A program made the translations under genes and the position numbers. Below are positions 3,866 through 15,322 of a stretch of 64,000 nt of DNA, piece by piece. Source of the stretch: Candidatus Neomicrothrix sp. (GTDB lineage: Bacteria; Actinomycetota; Acidimicrobiia; Acidimicrobiales; Aldehydirespiratoraceae); NCBI GenBank assembly GCA_017852795.1, contig JAFMKU010000002.1, forward strand, positions 9,221 to 73,220, given 5' to 3'. The notes beneath the pieces are model-generated. The model saw only the letters and a list, made by a program, of their open reading frames with translations. It made no database searches and was not told where the DNA came from. Numbering within the stretch: position 1 is the first letter of the stretch; each line of letters begins with the position of its first letter.

Positions 3866-5347
3866 TTATGCCGGGAGCTGCGTTCTGCGCAGACGATGGC
3901 GCCAGGCCACGGCCAGCACGATGAGAGCCAAAGTGAGCGCCGGCCAGGCACCAAGGGCCACGGCCGGGGTTCGACCGGTTCGGAGCTCAACCGTGTCGTA
4001 GAGCACTGCGGTTTCACTCACCGCGGTTCGTTGCCGGACGGTTCCGTCGGGTTCGATCACCGCGGAGAACCCGGTAGGCGCGGCTTGAAGCACCCACCGT
4101 CCGGTCTCGACCGCCCGCAGTCGGCTGGACGCAATCTGTTGAGTTTGCACAACGGTTAGCCAGTAGCTCGACCCGTTGGTTGGGTTGAGGAGGAGTTGGC
4201 CTCCGTTACCGATCGCATCGCGAGCTCGGTGGTCAAAGAACACTTCCCAAGAGATCGCGACGCCGAGCGGCCCCACTGCGGTGTCAAGCACCGCCGGGGT
4301 GGTGCCGGGTCGCACGTCTCGGGCCGGGAGTAAATTGCTGAACTTCTCGATCAGCGAACGCAGCGGGACGTACTCGCCGAACGGCACCAACCGAACTTTT
4401 TCGTAGCGGTCGGTGATGGTCCCGTCGGGTGATTGTGCGATCGAATAGTTGCTGTTGCTGAGATCGTCGTCGTTTCGCCTGAACCATCCGCTCACCACCA
4501 CCGCGTCGAGGTTTTGGGCCAGTTCGGTGAGTCGGCTGGTGGCTTCGTCGAAGCTGAGAAGTTCCTGTTTGCAGTTGGCCGGTTCAAGAAGCGAGCCTGC
4601 CGCGGGATGGACGACATCTTCGGGCCAGAGCACGAGGTCTACGGGCCGGTCGATGGTTTGTGAGGCGGCCATGTGGCGTTCGAACACGTTGCGGTTCTCG
4701 CAGATTTTGGCCCGAGTGTTTTGTGGGCCACCACCTTGCACGACCGCCACGTCGAGGGTGCCGACCACGGTGGTAGTGGCCAGAGATGCTTGCCCGCTTA
4801 GGGATGCCACCAGCAAGACGGCGGCGATCCCGGCCGCTCGGCGGGCTTGACGTTCTCGCAGATCAGCAACACCCACCCCGGCTAGCCCGACCAGTCCGGC
4901 CAGCAACGGTGACCCGAACAGTCGAGCCGCTTCAGCCCACGGGGTGGACATCCCGATCATGGCGTAGCTGGCGATCGGTGTTCCCCCGAACGGGTAGTTC
5001 CAACGCACCATCTCGATCAGCATCAAGGCGGCAGGAAAGGCGATCCGTTGGGCCCACCGCCGCTCGGGTGGGGTCAACACGCCAACCGCTCCGGCGCACA
5101 GCGAAAACACCAGTACCGCGGCGGGCCATCCGGCGAGGCTGAAATCGGCCATCCAGATCGTGGCGGGCGCCGACCAGCCGAGTCCGACCAGCACCGAGAT
5201 GCGAAAACGGGTTCGGGTGGGTTGCCCGGTGAGCCGGCGGTACCAGATTGCCAGCCCGATCAGGCTGAGCGGCCACCAGCCCCAAGGCGGAAGGCCCGCG
5301 GTGATGAGCAGGCCAGGCCCGATCGAGGCGAGGATCCGTCGAATCAT
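3866..5347 (-). CDS. apolipoprotein N-acyltransferase (Lnt)-like membrane protein, CN-hydrolase domain; nucleophile position reads Ser
   Basis: N-terminal multi-TM region plus a nitrilase-type domain. LVLWPE aligns to E. coli Lnt E267 and YEKVRLVPFGEYVPL to K335. VAISWEVFF aligns to ICYE, where C387 is the nucleophile. A C-terminal TM is present. Start ATG overlaps the cyclase stop (ATGA). Confidence 0.75.
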   Translation of the reverse strand: MIRRILASIGPGLLITAGLPPWGWWPLSLIGLAIWYRRLTGQPTRTRFRISVLVGLGWSAPATIWMADFSLAGWPAAVLVFSLCAGAVGVLTPPERRWAQRIAFPAALMLIEMVRWNYPFGGTPIASYAMIGMSTPWAEAARLFGSPLLAGLVGLAGVGVADLRERQARRAAGIAAVLLVASLSGQASLATTTVVGTLDVAVVQGGGPQNTRAKICENRNVFERHMAASQTIDRPVDLVLWPEDVVHPAAGSLLEPANCKQELLSFDEATSRLTELAQNLDAVVVSGWFRRNDDDLSNSNYSIAQSPDGTITDRYEKVRLVPFGEYVPLRSLIEKFSNLLPARDVRPGTTPAVLDTAVGPLGVAISWEVFFDHRARDAIGNGGQLLLNPTNGSSYWLTVVQTQQIASSRLRAVETGRWVLQAAPTGFSAVIEPDGTVRQRTAVSETAVLYDTVELRTGRTPAVALGAWPALTLALIVLAVAWRHRLRRTQLPA

Positions 5348-6009
5348 GGAATGTCGAGTTGCAGGCGATGCACGCCGCCTACCGAACCCACTCCTTTGAT
5401 CCGCACAGCCACGTCACCGTCGGATCGCACCCAACCGGGAAGGTCTGCGAAGTCACAAACCGCCAACATTTCGCCGGGTTGAGCGGCGCTGCACAACTTG
5501 GCGGCAAGGTTGACCGGTTCGCCGATGTAGTCGTCGCCTTCGAACAGCAACGCGATTCCCGTAGCGATCCCGATACGCACCTCCATGGACGTGCCAGCGA
5601 AGTGGTGGATCAGGTGGGCGCCGGTAGCGATGGTCGGCGTTGGTTCAACCCCGACCAGCATGACCCCGTCCCCCAACCATTTGGCGACCCGAACCCCGCG
5701 CTTTGCCGCAATGTTTCGGGTGACCCGGCGGAACTCACCGAGTGCCTCAACCGCGGCGTGAGGGCCGAGGCTGCGGGTGTAGGCGGTGAACCCACTCAGG
5801 TCGGCAAAGCAGAAGGTTCGGGTGACGTTGAGGTGGGTGGCGTGGTCGTCGATGGTGGTCGGTGGGGCGACCTGATCGTGGCTGGCGGCCTCCGCCCATT
5901 CGCGGGCGGGACCGGTGTCGATGGCGACGAGTGGGATCAAGATCTCGCCGGTGGGTTCACCTACGGCGGCTGGTCCGTCGGCGTGTCGTCGGGACGTATC
6001 GTCGGTCAT
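5344..6009 (-). CDS. class III adenylate/guanylate cyclase, stand-alone catalytic domain
   Basis: FCFADLSGFTAYT (metal Asp), VAKWLGDGVMLV (Lys plus second metal Asp), RIGIATG, EPVNLAAKL. Confidence 0.8.
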   Translation of the reverse strand: MTDDTSRRHADGPAAVGEPTGEILIPLVAIDTGPAREWAEAASHDQVAPPTTIDDHATHLNVTRTFCFADLSGFTAYTRSLGPHAAVEALGEFRRVTRNIAAKRGVRVAKWLGDGVMLVGVEPTPTIATGAHLIHHFAGTSMEVRIGIATGIALLFEGDDYIGEPVNLAAKLCSAAQPGEMLAVCDFADLPGWVRSDGDVAVRIKGVGSVGGVHRLQLDIP

Positions 6010-6045
6010 GTCTGTGGAGTATTGCAGGTTGCGCGGGCCAAACCC

Positions 6046-6420
6046 TCAGACCCGTTTGCCGCAAACCGGCCAGGGCTGAGCTCCGCGTTCGCTCCAGAGG
6101 GCCCGAGCCATGGCGTCCTGCCACCAGGGTTCCACATCAACCGGGTCGCTTCCGATGAGCCACGGGTAGTGCCGGTTGGCTACACCATCCCAGGTCGGCT
6201 GGTTGAACTGGTAGGCGCCCCGGTAGGTGCCTGATGGGGAGACGGCCCGGTAGTTGTCGGTGGATTCGCAGATCCGTAGCCGGTGGAGTTCTTCATTGTT
6301 GAGTTCGTGCCGGGTTGGTTCGGTGATGTCAAGGAACCAGACAATCTGCTGTGGCGTACAGGCGGCTGAAACAACGGATAAACCGAATGCAATGGCAATG
6401 AGCCATGTTTTGTTCTTCAT
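6046..6420 (-). CDS. Rpf-like transglycosylase-domain lipoprotein
   Basis: Start moved to ATG 6420 (MKNKTWLIAIAFGLSVVSAAC, lipobox SAAC), preceded by SD GAGGAGGAAG. Domain motifs: LRICES (catalytic Glu), GAYQFNQPTWD, QPWPVCG. Confidence 0.8.
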   Translation of the reverse strand: MKNKTWLIAIAFGLSVVSAACTPQQIVWFLDITEPTRHELNNEELHRLRICESTDNYRAVSPSGTYRGAYQFNQPTWDGVANRHYPWLIGSDPVDVEPWWQDAMARALWSERGAQPWPVCGKRV

Positions 6421-6572
6421 GATGGAGTGCTTCCTCCTCGGGCAAGCCCGCATCTTGGATCTCGGGATGACTCGTTCTCACGACCGCTGGTCGTGGGCAA
6501 GGGAGCAGGCGAGTCACCGATCCTGATAAGCAAGCGAGAGAGTAGGCCACTTTCGTAACACAAATGCAACAT

Positions 6573-6588
6573 TGTGATACATGTCACC
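6573..6588. promoter_or_regulatory. CRP/GlxR-like operator candidate TGTGAtacatgTCACc
   Basis: 9 of 10 half-site positions match TGTGA-N6-TCACA. Lies in the 192-nt hemY/rpf-like intergenic region, about 150-170 nt upstream of the rpf-like start. Confidence 0.4.
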
Positions 6589-6612
6589 CCGGAGTCCGGG
6601 TCCGGTTTTGGC

Positions 6613-7974
6613 TTATCCGGAGATTGCGGAGCGGCCCTGCCCGACGCAGGCAGGGAGTCCAAGCCCTCGCATTTGAGCGCCGCTGGCGGTGATTCCGGGT
6701 GCTCGCTCGGCCAGTTCGGCGTCGATGGCGTCGCAGCGCTCGAAGTGTCCGGGCCGGTACTGGGGCAACGACTGTCTCCACGGGCTTACCCGTGTGATGG
6801 GCTGACCGGTAAGCCCGACGGTCACACGGAGTTCTTCGGTGAGTGCCGCCACCAGCTCATCGGGAGCCAAGGTCAACCAGCGTTGATCATCGGTACGTCC
6901 CGCCGAAACCCGAAGCACCGCGTGCACGCCGTCGTCGTAATGCTCCCATTTCGACGATGTCCACGAGCAGGCCGTCATCAACAACCCCTGATCCCTCGGG
7001 ACCAGGAACCCGGAGCCGTCCAAGTCGTGAGTGATGCCTTCTCGCTCGACCACAAACGTGACCAGCACCGCGTCGCCGTACCCAAGTTCGGTGAGCGTGT
7101 GCGCTGCGGTTGGACAATACGGTTCGATCAGTCGGGCCGTGACCGGAGCAGGGGTGGCTAGCACCACCCGATCGGCCGTGAACGGTCCACGGGCCGTTGC
7201 GACGGTCCAACCCTCGGCCGAGCGCTGCAATCCAGTGACCTCATGGCCGAGACGAAGGTTTGGCCCCAGCGTCGCCGCGAGTGCCTCGATAAGCCGGCCG
7301 TTGCCGCCGCGAATCCCGTTGAACACCGGACCGGCTGCTGCGGCCTGCGCCTCGGTTGCCTGCCGGCGCAGCGCCTCGTCGAACCGGCCACCGGTTGCGG
7401 CAGCCGCTGCGAGTTGCGGAGCCCCGGCAACAATCGAAAGTTGGTCTGCGTTGCCAGCGTTGATCCCCCCCAGCAACGGGTCCACGAGGCGTTCGAACAC
7501 TTCGTCTCCGAGCCGGGGACGAAGCACCTCACCTACTGATGCATCGCCGAGCAGCGGAGCGGCGTCACGGGTCAACCCGGCCCGCAATTCGGCCACCCCA
7601 GCTTCGCTGACCAAGCCAGACCCGGCCACGGCGTCTGGCTCCAACGGCACACCAAGCACCGAAGGGCTGGGGATGGCCCGAAGCTGCCCATCGACCCAGA
7701 GAAAAGCCCGGCTGGTGCGAGGGGCGACTAGTTCACCAGCGAGCCCGAGTTCTTCAACCAGCCCGACCACCTCGGGGCGACGGGCCAGGAACCCGTCAGC
7801 TGCGAGATCAACCGGAAACGGCAGATGTGTACCCTCCACCGTTTCGGTAGCGATCTTTCCACCGGCTCGCTCGGCCCGATCGAGCACCACGACTTCGTGA
7901 CCGTGACGCTGCGCCTCGTGACCAGCGGCCAGACCGGTGATTCCGGCTCCGACGATCACGATTCGTTGGTTCAT
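6613..7974 (-). CDS. hemY: protoporphyrinogen/coproporphyrinogen III oxidase (HemY/CgoX type, FAD)
   Basis: N-terminal IVIVGAGITGLAAG dinucleotide fold, 453 aa, ATGA overlap with the hemE stop. Confidence 0.85.
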   Translation of the reverse strand: MNQRIVIVGAGITGLAAGHEAQRHGHEVVVLDRAERAGGKIATETVEGTHLPFPVDLAADGFLARRPEVVGLVEELGLAGELVAPRTSRAFLWVDGQLRAIPSPSVLGVPLEPDAVAGSGLVSEAGVAELRAGLTRDAAPLLGDASVGEVLRPRLGDEVFERLVDPLLGGINAGNADQLSIVAGAPQLAAAAATGGRFDEALRRQATEAQAAAAGPVFNGIRGGNGRLIEALAATLGPNLRLGHEVTGLQRSAEGWTVATARGPFTADRVVLATPAPVTARLIEPYCPTAAHTLTELGYGDAVLVTFVVEREGITHDLDGSGFLVPRDQGLLMTACSWTSSKWEHYDDGVHAVLRVSAGRTDDQRWLTLAPDELVAALTEELRVTVGLTGQPITRVSPWRQSLPQYRPGHFERCDAIDAELAERAPGITASGAQMRGLGLPACVGQGRSAISG

Positions 7975-9050
7975 GTGCGGACAGTTCCCTCACGATGCAC
8001 AAGGCGGACGATTTCGGTGAGCACCTCCGGATCCGAAGCTGGCATGACGCCATGACCAAGGTTGAAGATGTGTCCCGGGTGTCCGTCGTTGTCGGCCAGT
8101 ACCTCCCGGGCGGCCTCGGTAGCGGCGTCAACCCCGGCCAGGATCGTGGTCGGGTCGAGGTTGCCTTGCAGCGAAATACCTGATCCGACCCGGTTCCGGG
8201 CCTCGCTCAGCGGCACCCGCCAGTCAACACCGACGACATCGGCACCGGTAGCAGCCAGTTGACCGAGTAGTTCGCCGGTGGTGACCCCGAAATGGATTCT
8301 GGGTATCCCCGCGTCGGCTAGTGCATCCATCACTTTGGTGCTGTGAGGGGCGGCGTATCGCTGATATTGGCGAGGACTCAGCGAACCGGCCCACGAGTCG
8401 AAAAGCTGAATTGCCGACGCGCCATGGTCGATCTGGCTCTGAAGCGAGGCGATGGCTAGGTCAGCCAGCCGATCGCAGAGGGCATGCCAGAGCGGTTCGT
8501 TGTTGAACATCATGGATTTGGTGATGGCGTGATCCCGAGAGGGCCGCCCTTCGACCAGATACGACGCCACGGTGAACGGCGCACCGGCAAACCCGATAAG
8601 GGGCCGATCGAGTTCTGCCACCAACTGGCGCACCGTCTCGAGCACATACGGTGTGTCGGCTTCCGGGTCGAGGGGCCGCAACCGGGCCAGATCGTCTTCG
8701 TGCCGGAACGGTTCGTCCACTTCCGGGCCGACCCCAGGGGTGATCGTCAGTCCGAAGCCGATGGCGTGGGCCGGTACCACGATGTCGGAATAGAGAATGG
8801 CGGCGTCGACATTGTGGCGCCGAACCGGCTGCAACGTGATCTCGGTTGAGAGGTCAGGGTCAGCGATGGCGTCCAGAATGGTCCCGGTGCCCCGGATGGC
8901 GCGGTACTCGGGGAGCGAACGGCCTGCTTGGCGCATGAACCACACCGGAACCCGGTCGTGGGGGAGACCGCGACAGGCACGAATGAAGGGATGGTCGTCG
9001 AATGCTCCGGACACGTCGCCGAGGTTATCGCTGCGACGGCCCCAGCCCAT
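7971..9050 (-). CDS. hemE: uroporphyrinogen decarboxylase
   Basis: PVWFMRQAGRSLPEYR signature; length 359 aa. Confidence 0.92.
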   Translation of the reverse strand: MGWGRRSDNLGDVSGAFDDHPFIRACRGLPHDRVPVWFMRQAGRSLPEYRAIRGTGTILDAIADPDLSTEITLQPVRRHNVDAAILYSDIVVPAHAIGFGLTITPGVGPEVDEPFRHEDDLARLRPLDPEADTPYVLETVRQLVAELDRPLIGFAGAPFTVASYLVEGRPSRDHAITKSMMFNNEPLWHALCDRLADLAIASLQSQIDHGASAIQLFDSWAGSLSPRQYQRYAAPHSTKVMDALADAGIPRIHFGVTTGELLGQLAATGADVVGVDWRVPLSEARNRVGSGISLQGNLDPTTILAGVDAATEAAREVLADNDGHPGHIFNLGHGVMPASDPEVLTEIVRLVHREGTVRT

Positions 9051-14248: not shown

Positions 14249-14264
14249 TGTGACACATGTCATG
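14249..14264. promoter_or_regulatory. second CRP-like motif TGTGAcacatgTCAtg, overlapping a perfect 7-1-7 palindrome ACACATG-T-CATGTGT (14253..14267)
   Basis: Lies in the 65-nt gap between the ATPase stop and the SBP start. TATCAT at 14288..14293 puts a predicted TSS at the A of ATG 14300. Confidence 0.3.
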
Positions 14265-14299
14265 TGTTAGGGAACACTAAGACTCGTTATCATCCGCAC

Positions 14300-15322
14300 A
14301 TGAGACTTCTTCGTACTGTTGGTTTGGCGCTTGTAGTTGCCGTCCTTGGAACGGTTGTGGTGTCCTGCGGGGACGGTGGTTCAGGTGACGGTTCGTCACT
14401 CACCGTGTACTCGGGTCGGACCGAAGACTTGATTGGCCCGCTGCTTGAACAGTTCAGTAACGAGACCGGTATTGACGTTGAGGTTCGGTACGGCGATTCG
14501 GCAGAGCTGGCGCTGCTTTTGCAGACCGAAGGTTCGAGTTCTCCCGCCGACGTCTTCATTTCGCAGAGCCCGGGAGCGTTGGGTTTGCTCGCCGGCGAAG
14601 GGATGCTGGCGGAGCTCCCCGATGACCTCACTGGTCGAGTTTCCGAAGGCTTTGCCGGTTCGGATCACACCTGGGTTGGCATCACCGGTCGAGTCCGGGT
14701 GCTGGTTTACAACAAGGATCTCGTCGATCCGGCCGACCTTCCCCAGACGGTGCTGGATCTGGCCAAGGATGCCTACTCGGGTCGGGTAGCGGTGGCTCCC
14801 ACCAACGGATCGTTCCAAGATTTTGTTACCGCCATGCGAAGCGAACTCGGCGATCAGGTCACGGTCGAATGGTTGGAAGGGTTGGCAGCCAACCAATCTC
14901 CGAACTACCCCAAGAACTCGGCGATTGTGGAAGCGGTTGCTCGTGGCGAGGTAGAGATGGGTCTGGTCAACCACTACTACAACCTGCGAGCGTTGGAAGC
15001 CGACCCGGCGCTGGCGTCGGTCAACTACTTCTTTCCGGCCGATGATGTTGGCTCGCTGGTGATCGTCACGGGTGGCTCGGTGCTGGCCTCGAGCGATAGC
15101 CAGTCGGCCGGTGAACAGTTGCTGGCGTGGTTGTTGTCTGAAGACGTGCAGGCCACGTTCGTTACCGAAACGCAGGAGTACTCGTTGCTTCCGGGTGCTG
15201 GCCGTCCTGAGGGTGTGCCGGAGCTGAGTGGTTTTGCTGCCGACACCATCGACTACGATGTGCTCGGTGGGGGACTCACCGCGACCATCGAAATCATCAG
15301 GGAAAGCGGTATCGAGCGCTAG
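14300..15322 (+). CDS. Fe(III)-type ABC transporter substrate-binding lipoprotein (FbpA/AfuA-like)
   Basis: Start moved to ATG 14300 (MRLLRTVGLALVVAVLGTVVVSCG, lipobox). LTVYSGRTEDLIGPLLEQFSNETGIDVEV is typical of FbpA-family proteins. Confidence 0.85.
   Translation: MRLLRTVGLALVVAVLGTVVVSCGDGGSGDGSSLTVYSGRTEDLIGPLLEQFSNETGIDVEVRYGDSAELALLLQTEGSSSPADVFISQSPGALGLLAGEGMLAELPDDLTGRVSEGFAGSDHTWVGITGRVRVLVYNKDLVDPADLPQTVLDLAKDAYSGRVAVAPTNGSFQDFVTAMRSELGDQVTVEWLEGLAANQSPNYPKNSAIVEAVARGEVEMGLVNHYYNLRALEADPALASVNYFFPADDVGSLVIVTGGSVLASSDSQSAGEQLLAWLLSEDVQATFVTETQEYSLLPGAGRPEGVPELSGFAADTIDYDVLGGGLTATIEIIRESGIER

Follow-up and report, generated by a model that had tools for sequence, protein, structure and literature searches.

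A conserved candidate operator of the Crp type upstream of an rpf-like gene in Acidimicrobiales

Introduction

In a 64,000-nt stretch of a Candidatus Neomicrothrix sp. genome (GenBank contig JAFMKU010000002.1; hereafter, the window), a 16-bp palindrome lies between hemY and a short gene for an Rpf-like lipoprotein, which is followed by genes for a stand-alone class III nucleotidyl cyclase and an Lnt-like membrane protein. The locus raises the question of whether this palindrome is a genuine operator, what kind of regulator would read it and how far along the gene string its influence would extend. The initial annotation had proposed a cyclic AMP (cAMP)-responsive promoter driving a wall-remodelling enzyme together with a cAMP-producing enzyme and a lipoprotein-acylation-like enzyme, the whole forming an autoregulatory cAMP/envelope module. 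Our analysis suggests that the palindrome is a real, conserved operator and that its regulator most likely belongs to the Crp type, a reading to which we assign a probability of roughly 55% and in which binding is predicted from the sequence.

Results

Conservation of the palindrome upstream of rpf

6573..6588, no strand assigned: 16-bp candidate operator, GGTGACATGTATCACA on the gene strand (6588..6573) and TGTGATACATGTCACC on the plus strand

The palindrome sits in the 192-nt spacer between the hemY stop codon and the rpf-like ATG (6420), 24 nt past the former and 168 nt ahead of the latter. We fetched 80 species-level genomes encoding the cyclase and mapped the neighbouring genes; three further loci (L123, L163 and L190) were added from a metagenome scan with the 16-mer proximal to the Shine–Dalgarno (SD) sequence, the listed matches of which were mostly random, with 3 of 120 loci being useful. 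An rpf gene is found upstream of the cyclase gene in 17 of the 80 loci, and eight of these 17 (L011, L012, L013, L015, L017, L018, L043 and L076) have a palindrome that matches at 8/10 or better and lies between −166 and −174 relative to the rpf ATG. Among the metagenome matches listed, L123, L163 and L190 have the palindrome at the same position. Alignment of the orthologous rpf upstream regions, which the initial annotation had suggested as a check on the site, showed that the palindrome is kept in at least 11 other species-level Acidimicrobiales genomes.

Alignability starts at the first GTG of the palindrome, the sequence on its 5′ side being unalignable. The family consensus is TGTGAC-N4-GTCACA, and the arms are conserved across the 12 aligned rpf sites (G2 in 11/12, T3 and G4 in 12/12, A5, C6 and G11 in 11/12, C13 and A16 in 12/12), positions 9 and 10 being free. 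In L015, the palindrome still stands 168 nt before rpf although a gene for a 1023-aa protein parts rpf from hemY. Within 776 kb of related loci, we counted 11 sites matching at 9/10 or better, six of which are the rpf sites. Two further CRP-like matches of 9/10, which may be due to chance, lie just 3′ of lnt in L015 (7249) and L078 (7240).

A second copy at an iron-type transporter promoter

14249..14264, no strand assigned: second copy of the operator, TGTGACACATGTCATG; the ATG of an iron(III)-type ATP-binding cassette (ABC) substrate-binding protein (SBP) gene lies 36 nt downstream
14300..15322, plus strand: iron(III)-type ABC SBP gene, downstream of the second operator
14267..14293, plus strand: TTAGGGAACACTAAG box (an IdeR/DtxR-like half-match) and −10 element, 2 nt past the second operator

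The palindrome recurs 7.7 kb from the rpf site, between an ABC ATPase gene and the SBP gene. The window holds exactly two occurrences of the 13 specified bases TGACATGTnTCACA (pattern TGACATGTNTCACA), compared with a mean of 0.07 in shuffled sequences, none of 100 of which held two matches. The site occupies the same position in each of four orthologous ATPase–SBP spacers (L211–L214), in the forms TGTGACGAATGTCTCT, TGTGACGAACATCACA (a 10/10 match), TGTGACGAATGTCATC and AGTGACGAAAGTCTCA. Two promoters within 64 kb thus carry the palindrome, both copies being intergenic and both conserved; a matrix scan of the whole window was at chance level overall and yielded no further site above chance apart from that at 14249.

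Across the 17 copies (12 rpf and 5 SBP sites), G2, T3, G4, C13 and C15 are conserved in 13–17 of 17, and all 17 have at most one mismatch to GTG(N6)GNCAC. This pattern is the DNase-footprint consensus of Streptomyces coelicolor Crp, the two halves of which are unequally conserved (PMC3520106).

The SBP promoter has features of its own. Its −10 hexamer, TATCAT (14288..14293), lies 6 nt before the SBP ATG, a predicted leaderless arrangement, and each of the five SBP promoters has TAnnnT 6–7 nt upstream of the start codon. The adjacent sequence TGTTAGGnATACyTAAC is kept in L211–L214 (around 1438–1501), and an IdeR-family gene adjoins the SBP operon in L213. By hand count, the box matches 10–12 of the 19 positions of what we take to be the iron-box consensus.

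A predicted core promoter and an adjacent direct-repeat block

6551..6570, minus strand: conserved block GTTGCATTTGTGTTACGAAA, 3 nt past the palindrome and ahead of the −10 (alignments)
6539..6544, minus strand: −10-like hexamer TACTCT (TAnnnT; alignment)

Ten of the 12 aligned clade-1 promoters keep (C/G)TAnnnT, and the two others have TTAGGG (L190) and GTAGGG (L123) in the −10 column, with the T one base later. A consensus scan returned no canonical sigma-70 promoter, as would be expected of an activator-dependent promoter. From these positions, transcription would start at about 6531..6535, which would centre the operator at about −45.5 to −49.5, directly upstream of the would-be −35 element.

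The block between the palindrome and the −10 hexamer is as conserved as the palindrome itself and unique in the window (0.03 occurrences expected). It is a direct repeat, GTTGCA-n5-GTKACG, with an 11-bp period, and 9 nt separate its end from the −10. A sister clade whose rpf genes have no palindrome keeps the block as ATTACAGTTATGTGACAAAC (ATTACA-n5-GTGACA), with a third unit, GTTACA, 21 nt upstream. The block is a candidate −35 substitute or response-regulator (MtrA-like) box, distinct from the palindrome. The MtrA motifs described in the literature consist of degenerate GTnAC units repeated directly every 11 bp, and chromatin immunoprecipitation identifies the five rpf genes of Mycobacterium tuberculosis, without exception, as MtrA targets (PMC6265350, PMC5650626). 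The block resembles MtrA (PhoB/OmpR-type) promoters in its GTnnCn direct repeats, their period and their distance from the −10, and differs in the looseness of its fit, which by hand count is 4–5 of 6 positions per unit.

Such likeness raises the possibility that the GTGAC words of the palindrome are themselves OmpR-family (MtrA) half-sites, the left arm and the downstream block forming direct repeats and the symmetry being secondary. Apart from the precedent of the M. tuberculosis rpf genes, this proposal can draw on GTTGCA-n5-GTGACG, which ends at the same distance from the −10 as pho-box-type sites, on the retention of the repeats in the palindrome-less clade and on three TGTGAC direct repeats ahead of the cyclase start in that clade. 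However, a distance of 17 nt separates the clade-1 left arm from the next repeat and puts it out of phase; G-Y-CAC-A, the right arm, is itself retained as an inverted copy across the 12 rpf and 5 SBP sites; and the SBP promoter has the palindrome but no direct-repeat block. We consider this explanation of the palindrome improbable; the MtrA reading suits the neighbouring block better.

Which regulator would read the palindrome?

Several points weigh against the preferred reading of the palindrome as a Crp-type operator. The window site matches 9 of the 10 core positions of TGTGA-N6-TCACA, and a consensus match of such quality is expected about once per window by chance: with up to one mismatch allowed, the motif occurs once in the window, whereas shuffled sequences contain 1.45 on average, 77 of 100 having at least one. 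Similarly, a matrix built from the other genomes gives the window rpf site 10.6 bits and the second site 16.3 bits, and hits of at least 15 bits with the same matrix arise 0.64 times per simulated window. Because neither the single match nor the matrix score is beyond chance, the case for the site rests on its conservation and on its recurrence in a second copy. The sister clade (L019, L023, L025, L026 and L036) has rpf without the palindrome. The distance from operator to −10 is 36.5 nt at rpf, whereas the second promoter, with a predicted operator centre at about −43.5 or −55.5, has 31.5 or 42.5 nt; neither spacing is canonical for class I or class II activation, so that activation is argued by analogy alone. 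In the cyclase, Lys171, invariant in 23 homologues, replaces the transition-state Arg, which makes the output of the enzyme uncertain.

The regulator itself adds to these points. Searches with tblastn and phmmer, using CRP of Escherichia coli and M. tuberculosis as queries, found no Crp/Fnr gene, either in the window or among 90 related loci (L001–L090). The M. tuberculosis query was 95–97% identical to database CRPs. The CRP-like protein clusters retrieved from public data belong to Mycobacteriales, Propionibacteriaceae, Frankiaceae or Micrococcales or are unnamed, none being tied to Acidimicrobiales, and a literature search for an Acidimicrobiales Crp returned no report. The search for a crp/glxR homologue, which the initial annotation had named as a check, thus came out negative for the window and these 90 loci. 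As for the cAMP-responsive promoter that it had postulated, a conserved site of the CRP/GlxR type next to the rpf core promoter stands, and the regulator lacks a gene in the loci searched.

These negative results count towards an alternative in which the palindrome is a true operator read by another dimeric helix-turn-helix (HTH) regulator, one that does not depend on cAMP and serves, for example, redox, metal or developmental control, the likeness of the half-sites being coincidental. The position of the two targets, one after heme genes and the other in an iron-type transporter operon beside an IdeR-like box, would likewise suit iron, heme or redox regulation. GTGA/TCAC cores are common to the palindrome, the Rex operator (TTGTGAA-N4-TTCACAA) and the BldD box (AGTGA-Nm-TCACC), and Rex requires A and T at palindrome positions 6 and 11. 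Unlike in Rex sites, these positions are C and G in 16/17 and 15/17 copies, respectively. Furthermore, the footprinted Crp consensus fits the complete set of 17 sites, and rpf is a recurrent CRP target. Rex, BldD and IdeR were rejected as readers of the palindrome or given a low probability, as C6/G11 and the 16-bp geometry suit Crp better. A regulator independent of cAMP is, in our estimate, doubtful, while keeping a real share of the probability, and we retain the Crp-type reading.

A lineage-specific rpf leader

6421..6538, minus strand: conserved 5′ leader of ~113 nt (alignment, RNAalifold and covariance model)
6479..6495, minus strand: hairpin P2, CACGACC-agc-GGTCGTG (sequence and covariation)
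6439..6450, minus strand: hairpin P3, CGGGC-tt-GCCCG, abutting the SD (sequence and covariation)
6433..6439, minus strand: SD GAGGAGG, 12 nt ahead of the rpf-like ATG

Twelve genomes share ~70% sequence identity between the −10 and the ATG, and RNAalifold predicts four helices in the leader. Both hairpins that had been reported here from the single sequence are present (6495..6479 and 6450..6439 on the gene strand), as is the strong SD. Compensatory changes are seen in three pairs of P2 and two pairs of P3 and come from few lineages; overall, 94% of cells are paired, compared with 89% in shuffles. The helix CUGCC/GGCAG around the SD is invariant in the alignment and therefore provides evidence neither for nor against pairing. 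A covariance model of the leader (R1) detected 13 loci in 857 kb, all before clade-1 rpf genes, with nothing else below E = 0.3; with this model, the leader is absent from the rpf genes of the sister clade.

The rpfA leader of Streptomyces and Mycobacterium is a ydaO/cyclic di-AMP riboswitch. The Rfam search that the initial annotation had recommended for this leader matched no family, either at E ≤ 10 in 5900..6800 or at the gathering score in the window and 13 related loci, and a ydaO/cyclic di-AMP riboswitch was rejected as the rpf leader on this ground. The leader is lineage-specific and outside the known Rfam families.

Conservation of the entire ~190 nt downstream of the palindrome at ~70% identity bears on a further explanation, namely, that the palindrome acts as RNA, in the form of a hairpin 3′ of hemE–hemY (a stabiliser or weak terminator), or is a passenger of a conserved promoter region. 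In keeping with this, it lies 24 nt after the stop of hemY or whichever gene precedes rpf, and L011 shows a symmetric double change, GTGGC...GCCAC. Nevertheless, the arms are often non-complementary in relatives (GTGAC...GTCTCA, GTGAC...GTCGCA and ATGAC...GTCACA), the stem comprises merely 5–6 bp, no U-tract follows it, and the same sequence stands before a leaderless promoter at the second locus in five genomes. A role as RNA or a passenger status is accordingly most improbable.

Gene order and the question of a module

7971..9050, minus strand: hemE, URO-D at 1.5e-117 (Pfam); overlaps the hemY-like open reading frame (ORF)
6613..7974, minus strand: hemY/CgoX-like protoporphyrinogen/coproporphyrinogen oxidase gene, Pfam Amino_oxidase at 2.8e-40; stop TAA at 6615..6613
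6589..6605, minus strand: hairpin CCGGA-ccCGGAC-TCCGG, directly 3′ of the hemY stop (sequence inspection)
6046..6420, minus strand: rpf-like lipoprotein gene, 124 aa, Pfam PF06737 Transglycosylas
5344..6009, minus strand: stand-alone class III nucleotidyl cyclase gene, 221 aa, Pfam PF00211 Guanylate_cyc
3866..5347, minus strand: Lnt-like membrane protein gene, 493 aa, Pfam LNT_N and CN_hydrolase

All genes of the hemE-to-lnt string lie on the minus strand, and a GT4 glycosyltransferase gene followed by a UbiE/MenG-type methyltransferase gene is found downstream of the lnt-like gene. Direct reading of the sequence and ORFs bore out the earlier coordinates of the palindrome, the genes, the spacer ahead of rpf, the 36-nt gap between the rpf stop and the cyclase start and the ATGA at 5347..5344, where the cyclase TGA overlaps the Lnt-like ATG. 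Contigs of several aquatic metagenomes, as well as the NCBI metagenome-assembled genome (MAG) GCA_040262815.1, encode proteins identical to those of the window; among relatives with a name, the nearest are MAGs of Acidimicrobiales that bear the label Candidatus Microthrix or Aldehydirespiratoraceae.

Would an operator at rpf also govern the cyclase? Such reach would, in this genome, follow from the gene order, that is, the short gap, the ATGA overlap and the lack of a minus-strand terminator within 5300..6800 in a terminator scan. The hairpin at 6589..6605 has no U-tract on the gene strand and was reported by the scan for the plus strand only, so that read-through from hemEY is possible. Co-transcription of the rpf, cyclase and Lnt-like genes is plausible here, as a lineage-specific arrangement.

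The relatives tell how this arrangement came about. About 45 of the 80 genomes have hemE–hemY–cyclase–lnt–GT4 without rpf, with a hemY–cyclase gap of a few to ~200 nt, and no CRP-like site was found before the cyclase in these ~45 genomes. This comparison of gene orders points to hemE–hemY–cyclase–lnt–GT4 as the ancestral string, with rpf, operator, block and leader as an insertion in a minority subclade. Within clade 1, the rpf–cyclase–lnt adjacency is kept, the rpf–cyclase gap being 9–77 nt in relatives. Among the metagenome matches listed, L123 (3853–5166) and L190 (3006–5009) have operator, leader and rpf, then ~180 nt and lnt, without the cyclase. In L015 (1300–4371), the gene between hemY and the rpf control region encodes an MMPL/RND-like membrane protein with a poly-Thr tract; 3.7 kb are inserted between hemY and rpf in L015 and, judging by position, in L011. 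Because the operator stays with rpf across these rearrangements and is absent where rpf is absent, it belongs to rpf and not to the cyclase.

For the autoregulatory cAMP/envelope module, the outcome is therefore mixed: the CRP-type site and a likely co-transcription in this genome speak for it, whereas the genomes that have the string without rpf and operator, and the two loci without the cyclase, show that it is not a conserved design. By this comparison of sequences, the coupling of operator and cyclase is recent and not general.

Two side observations concern the cyclase surroundings. In the sister clade (L019–L026 and L036, at ~4885–4935), three TGTGAC direct repeats, spaced by 10 and 16 nt, stand just ahead of the cyclase GTG start and run into it, which suggests a separate, possibly leaderless, cyclase promoter. 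The order hemE–hemY–cyclase–lnt(Ser)–GT4 in most of the 80 genomes places the heme pair beside a cyclase and envelope-lipid genes with no obvious rationale.

The rpf-like, cyclase and Lnt-like proteins

The Rpf-like protein scores 41.4 bits with Transglycosylas (PF06737) against a cut-off of 27 and has a signal peptide with the lipobox VSAA|C, as judged by inspection against the PROSITE rule. In alignment with the M. tuberculosis RpfC structures 2N5Z and 4OW1, the catalytic Glu of CES, the Cys pair, QF..TW and WP.CG all align. The same start, giving 124 aa, is called on public contigs, and an upstream ATG at 6453 is not conserved.

The cyclase exceeds the Guanylate_cyc cut-off by a small margin (25.8 versus 21.9 bits). 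Its relatives in the PDB are Rv1264, Rv1900c (LipJ), Ma1120 and CyaB, the best match being the catalytic domain of Rv1264. With the latter it shares the metal-binding Asp pair (D70 and D114), the adenine-specifying Lys and Asp (K110 and D160) and the transition-state Asn (N167), that is, five of the six canonical catalytic residues; it differs from Rv1264 in having Lys for the transition-state Arg and in lacking the N-terminal pH-sensing domain. In place of the latter, there is a conserved 60-residue N-terminal extension (PLxAxDTGPAREWAEAA). The protein is 60–78% identical across Acidimicrobiales, and cyclase activity is plausible from its sequence.

The Lnt-like protein scores 185.8 with TIGR00546 (NCBIfam lnt) against a cut-off of 132.9 and contains WPE and YEKvrLVPFGEY. 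However, Ser366 occupies the position of E. coli Cys387, giving an E-K-S in place of the E-K-C triad, and the best PDB match is accordingly the C387S mutant 5VRH. All 68 orthologous Lnt-like copies examined (L001–L078 and L190) have this Ser (ISWE, not ICYE). In E. coli, C387S abolishes Lnt activity, and Cys387 is likewise replaced by Ser in BCG_2279c/Rv2262c, a second mycobacterial Lnt homologue that does not complement loss of the true Lnt (PMC3850990). The window protein thus resembles BCG_2279c/Rv2262c–2261c of slow-growing mycobacteria in being an Lnt homologue with Ser for the catalytic Cys; BCG_2279c coexists with a Cys-type Lnt, and the likeness described here is one of substitution. 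With the catalytic Cys missing, as in the non-complementing BCG_2279c, the earlier label of a lipoprotein-acylation-like enzyme is unsafe.

Discussion

Taken together, these observations are consistent with a model in which a dimeric HTH regulator of the Crp/GlxR type, probably with cAMP bound, would bind the palindrome, which adjoins the rpf core promoter on its upstream side and is centred ~46–49 bp ahead of the predicted start, and would there aid RNA polymerase where the −10 is good but a proper −35 is missing. A second factor would probably act through the adjacent direct-repeat block. The transcript would open with the structured leader, the last hairpin of which abuts the SD, and would most likely run through the short gap into the cyclase gene and then, by translational coupling at the ATGA, into the gene for the Ser-type Lnt paralogue. 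If the transcript does continue into the cyclase gene, cAMP-dependent control of a cAMP-producing enzyme is possible, as a by-product of rpf having inserted between hemY and an older cyclase–lnt pair. A more ambitious version can be imagined, in which operator, leader and rpf–cyclase–Lnt(Ser) form a self-reinforcing switch for exit from dormancy, with cAMP–Crp inducing the muralytic lipoprotein and additional cyclase in a positive feedback, the leader is a new riboregulator that responds to a ligand or a protein and replaces ydaO, and cyclase(Lys171)–Lnt(Ser366)–GT4 is an order-wide envelope-lipid signalling unit; we regard this as decidedly improbable.

Should the regulator prove to be Crp, the link from cAMP to Rpf would reach the deep-branching, largely uncultured Acidimicrobiia and would be either ancient in the phylum Actinomycetota or repeatedly selected there. 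Rpf proteins help to bring uncultured actinobacteria into growth, so that the switch controlling them in abundant aquatic lineages would be of practical value. The Ser-type Lnt beside a Lys-variant cyclase, the lineage-specific rpf leader and the operator at the iron-transporter promoter provide leads for envelope biology. Current understanding is not overturned by any of this.

The closest known systems are those in which CRP or GlxR controls an rpf gene. In M. tuberculosis, CRP (Rv3676) controls rpfA (PMC4477654). In Corynebacterium glutamicum, GlxR activates rpf2 in concert with two other regulators, RamA and RamB (PMC4448153, citing Jungwirth 2008), and Streptomyces rpfA is under Crp control (PMC5693915, citing St-Onge 2015). 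The literature thus agrees with the background on which the initial annotation drew, that is, the CRP/GlxR motif and the Rv3676–rpfA and GlxR–rpf2 links. The window shares with CRP–rpfA of M. tuberculosis, GlxR–rpf2 of C. glutamicum and Crp–rpfA of S. coelicolor a palindrome of the TGTGA-N6-TCACA type upstream of an rpf gene, and with the Streptomyces Crp sites, in particular, the pattern GTG(N6)GNCAC with one half better conserved. In all three systems, the regulator is an activator, and by analogy with rpfA and rpf2 of these genera we infer an activating role at the window rpf. Dual control with a second factor, probable here, has its counterparts in MtrA at the M. tuberculosis rpf genes and in RamA/RamB at rpf2. 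Unlike the three known systems, the present case comes from Acidimicrobiia represented by MAGs only, and involves a minimal lipoprotein Rpf of 124 aa, a leader other than ydaO, and a cyclase and an Lnt paralogue downstream. The CRP–rpf link is already known in Mycobacterium, Corynebacterium and Streptomyces; what is new is its probable instance in another class, the Acidimicrobiia.

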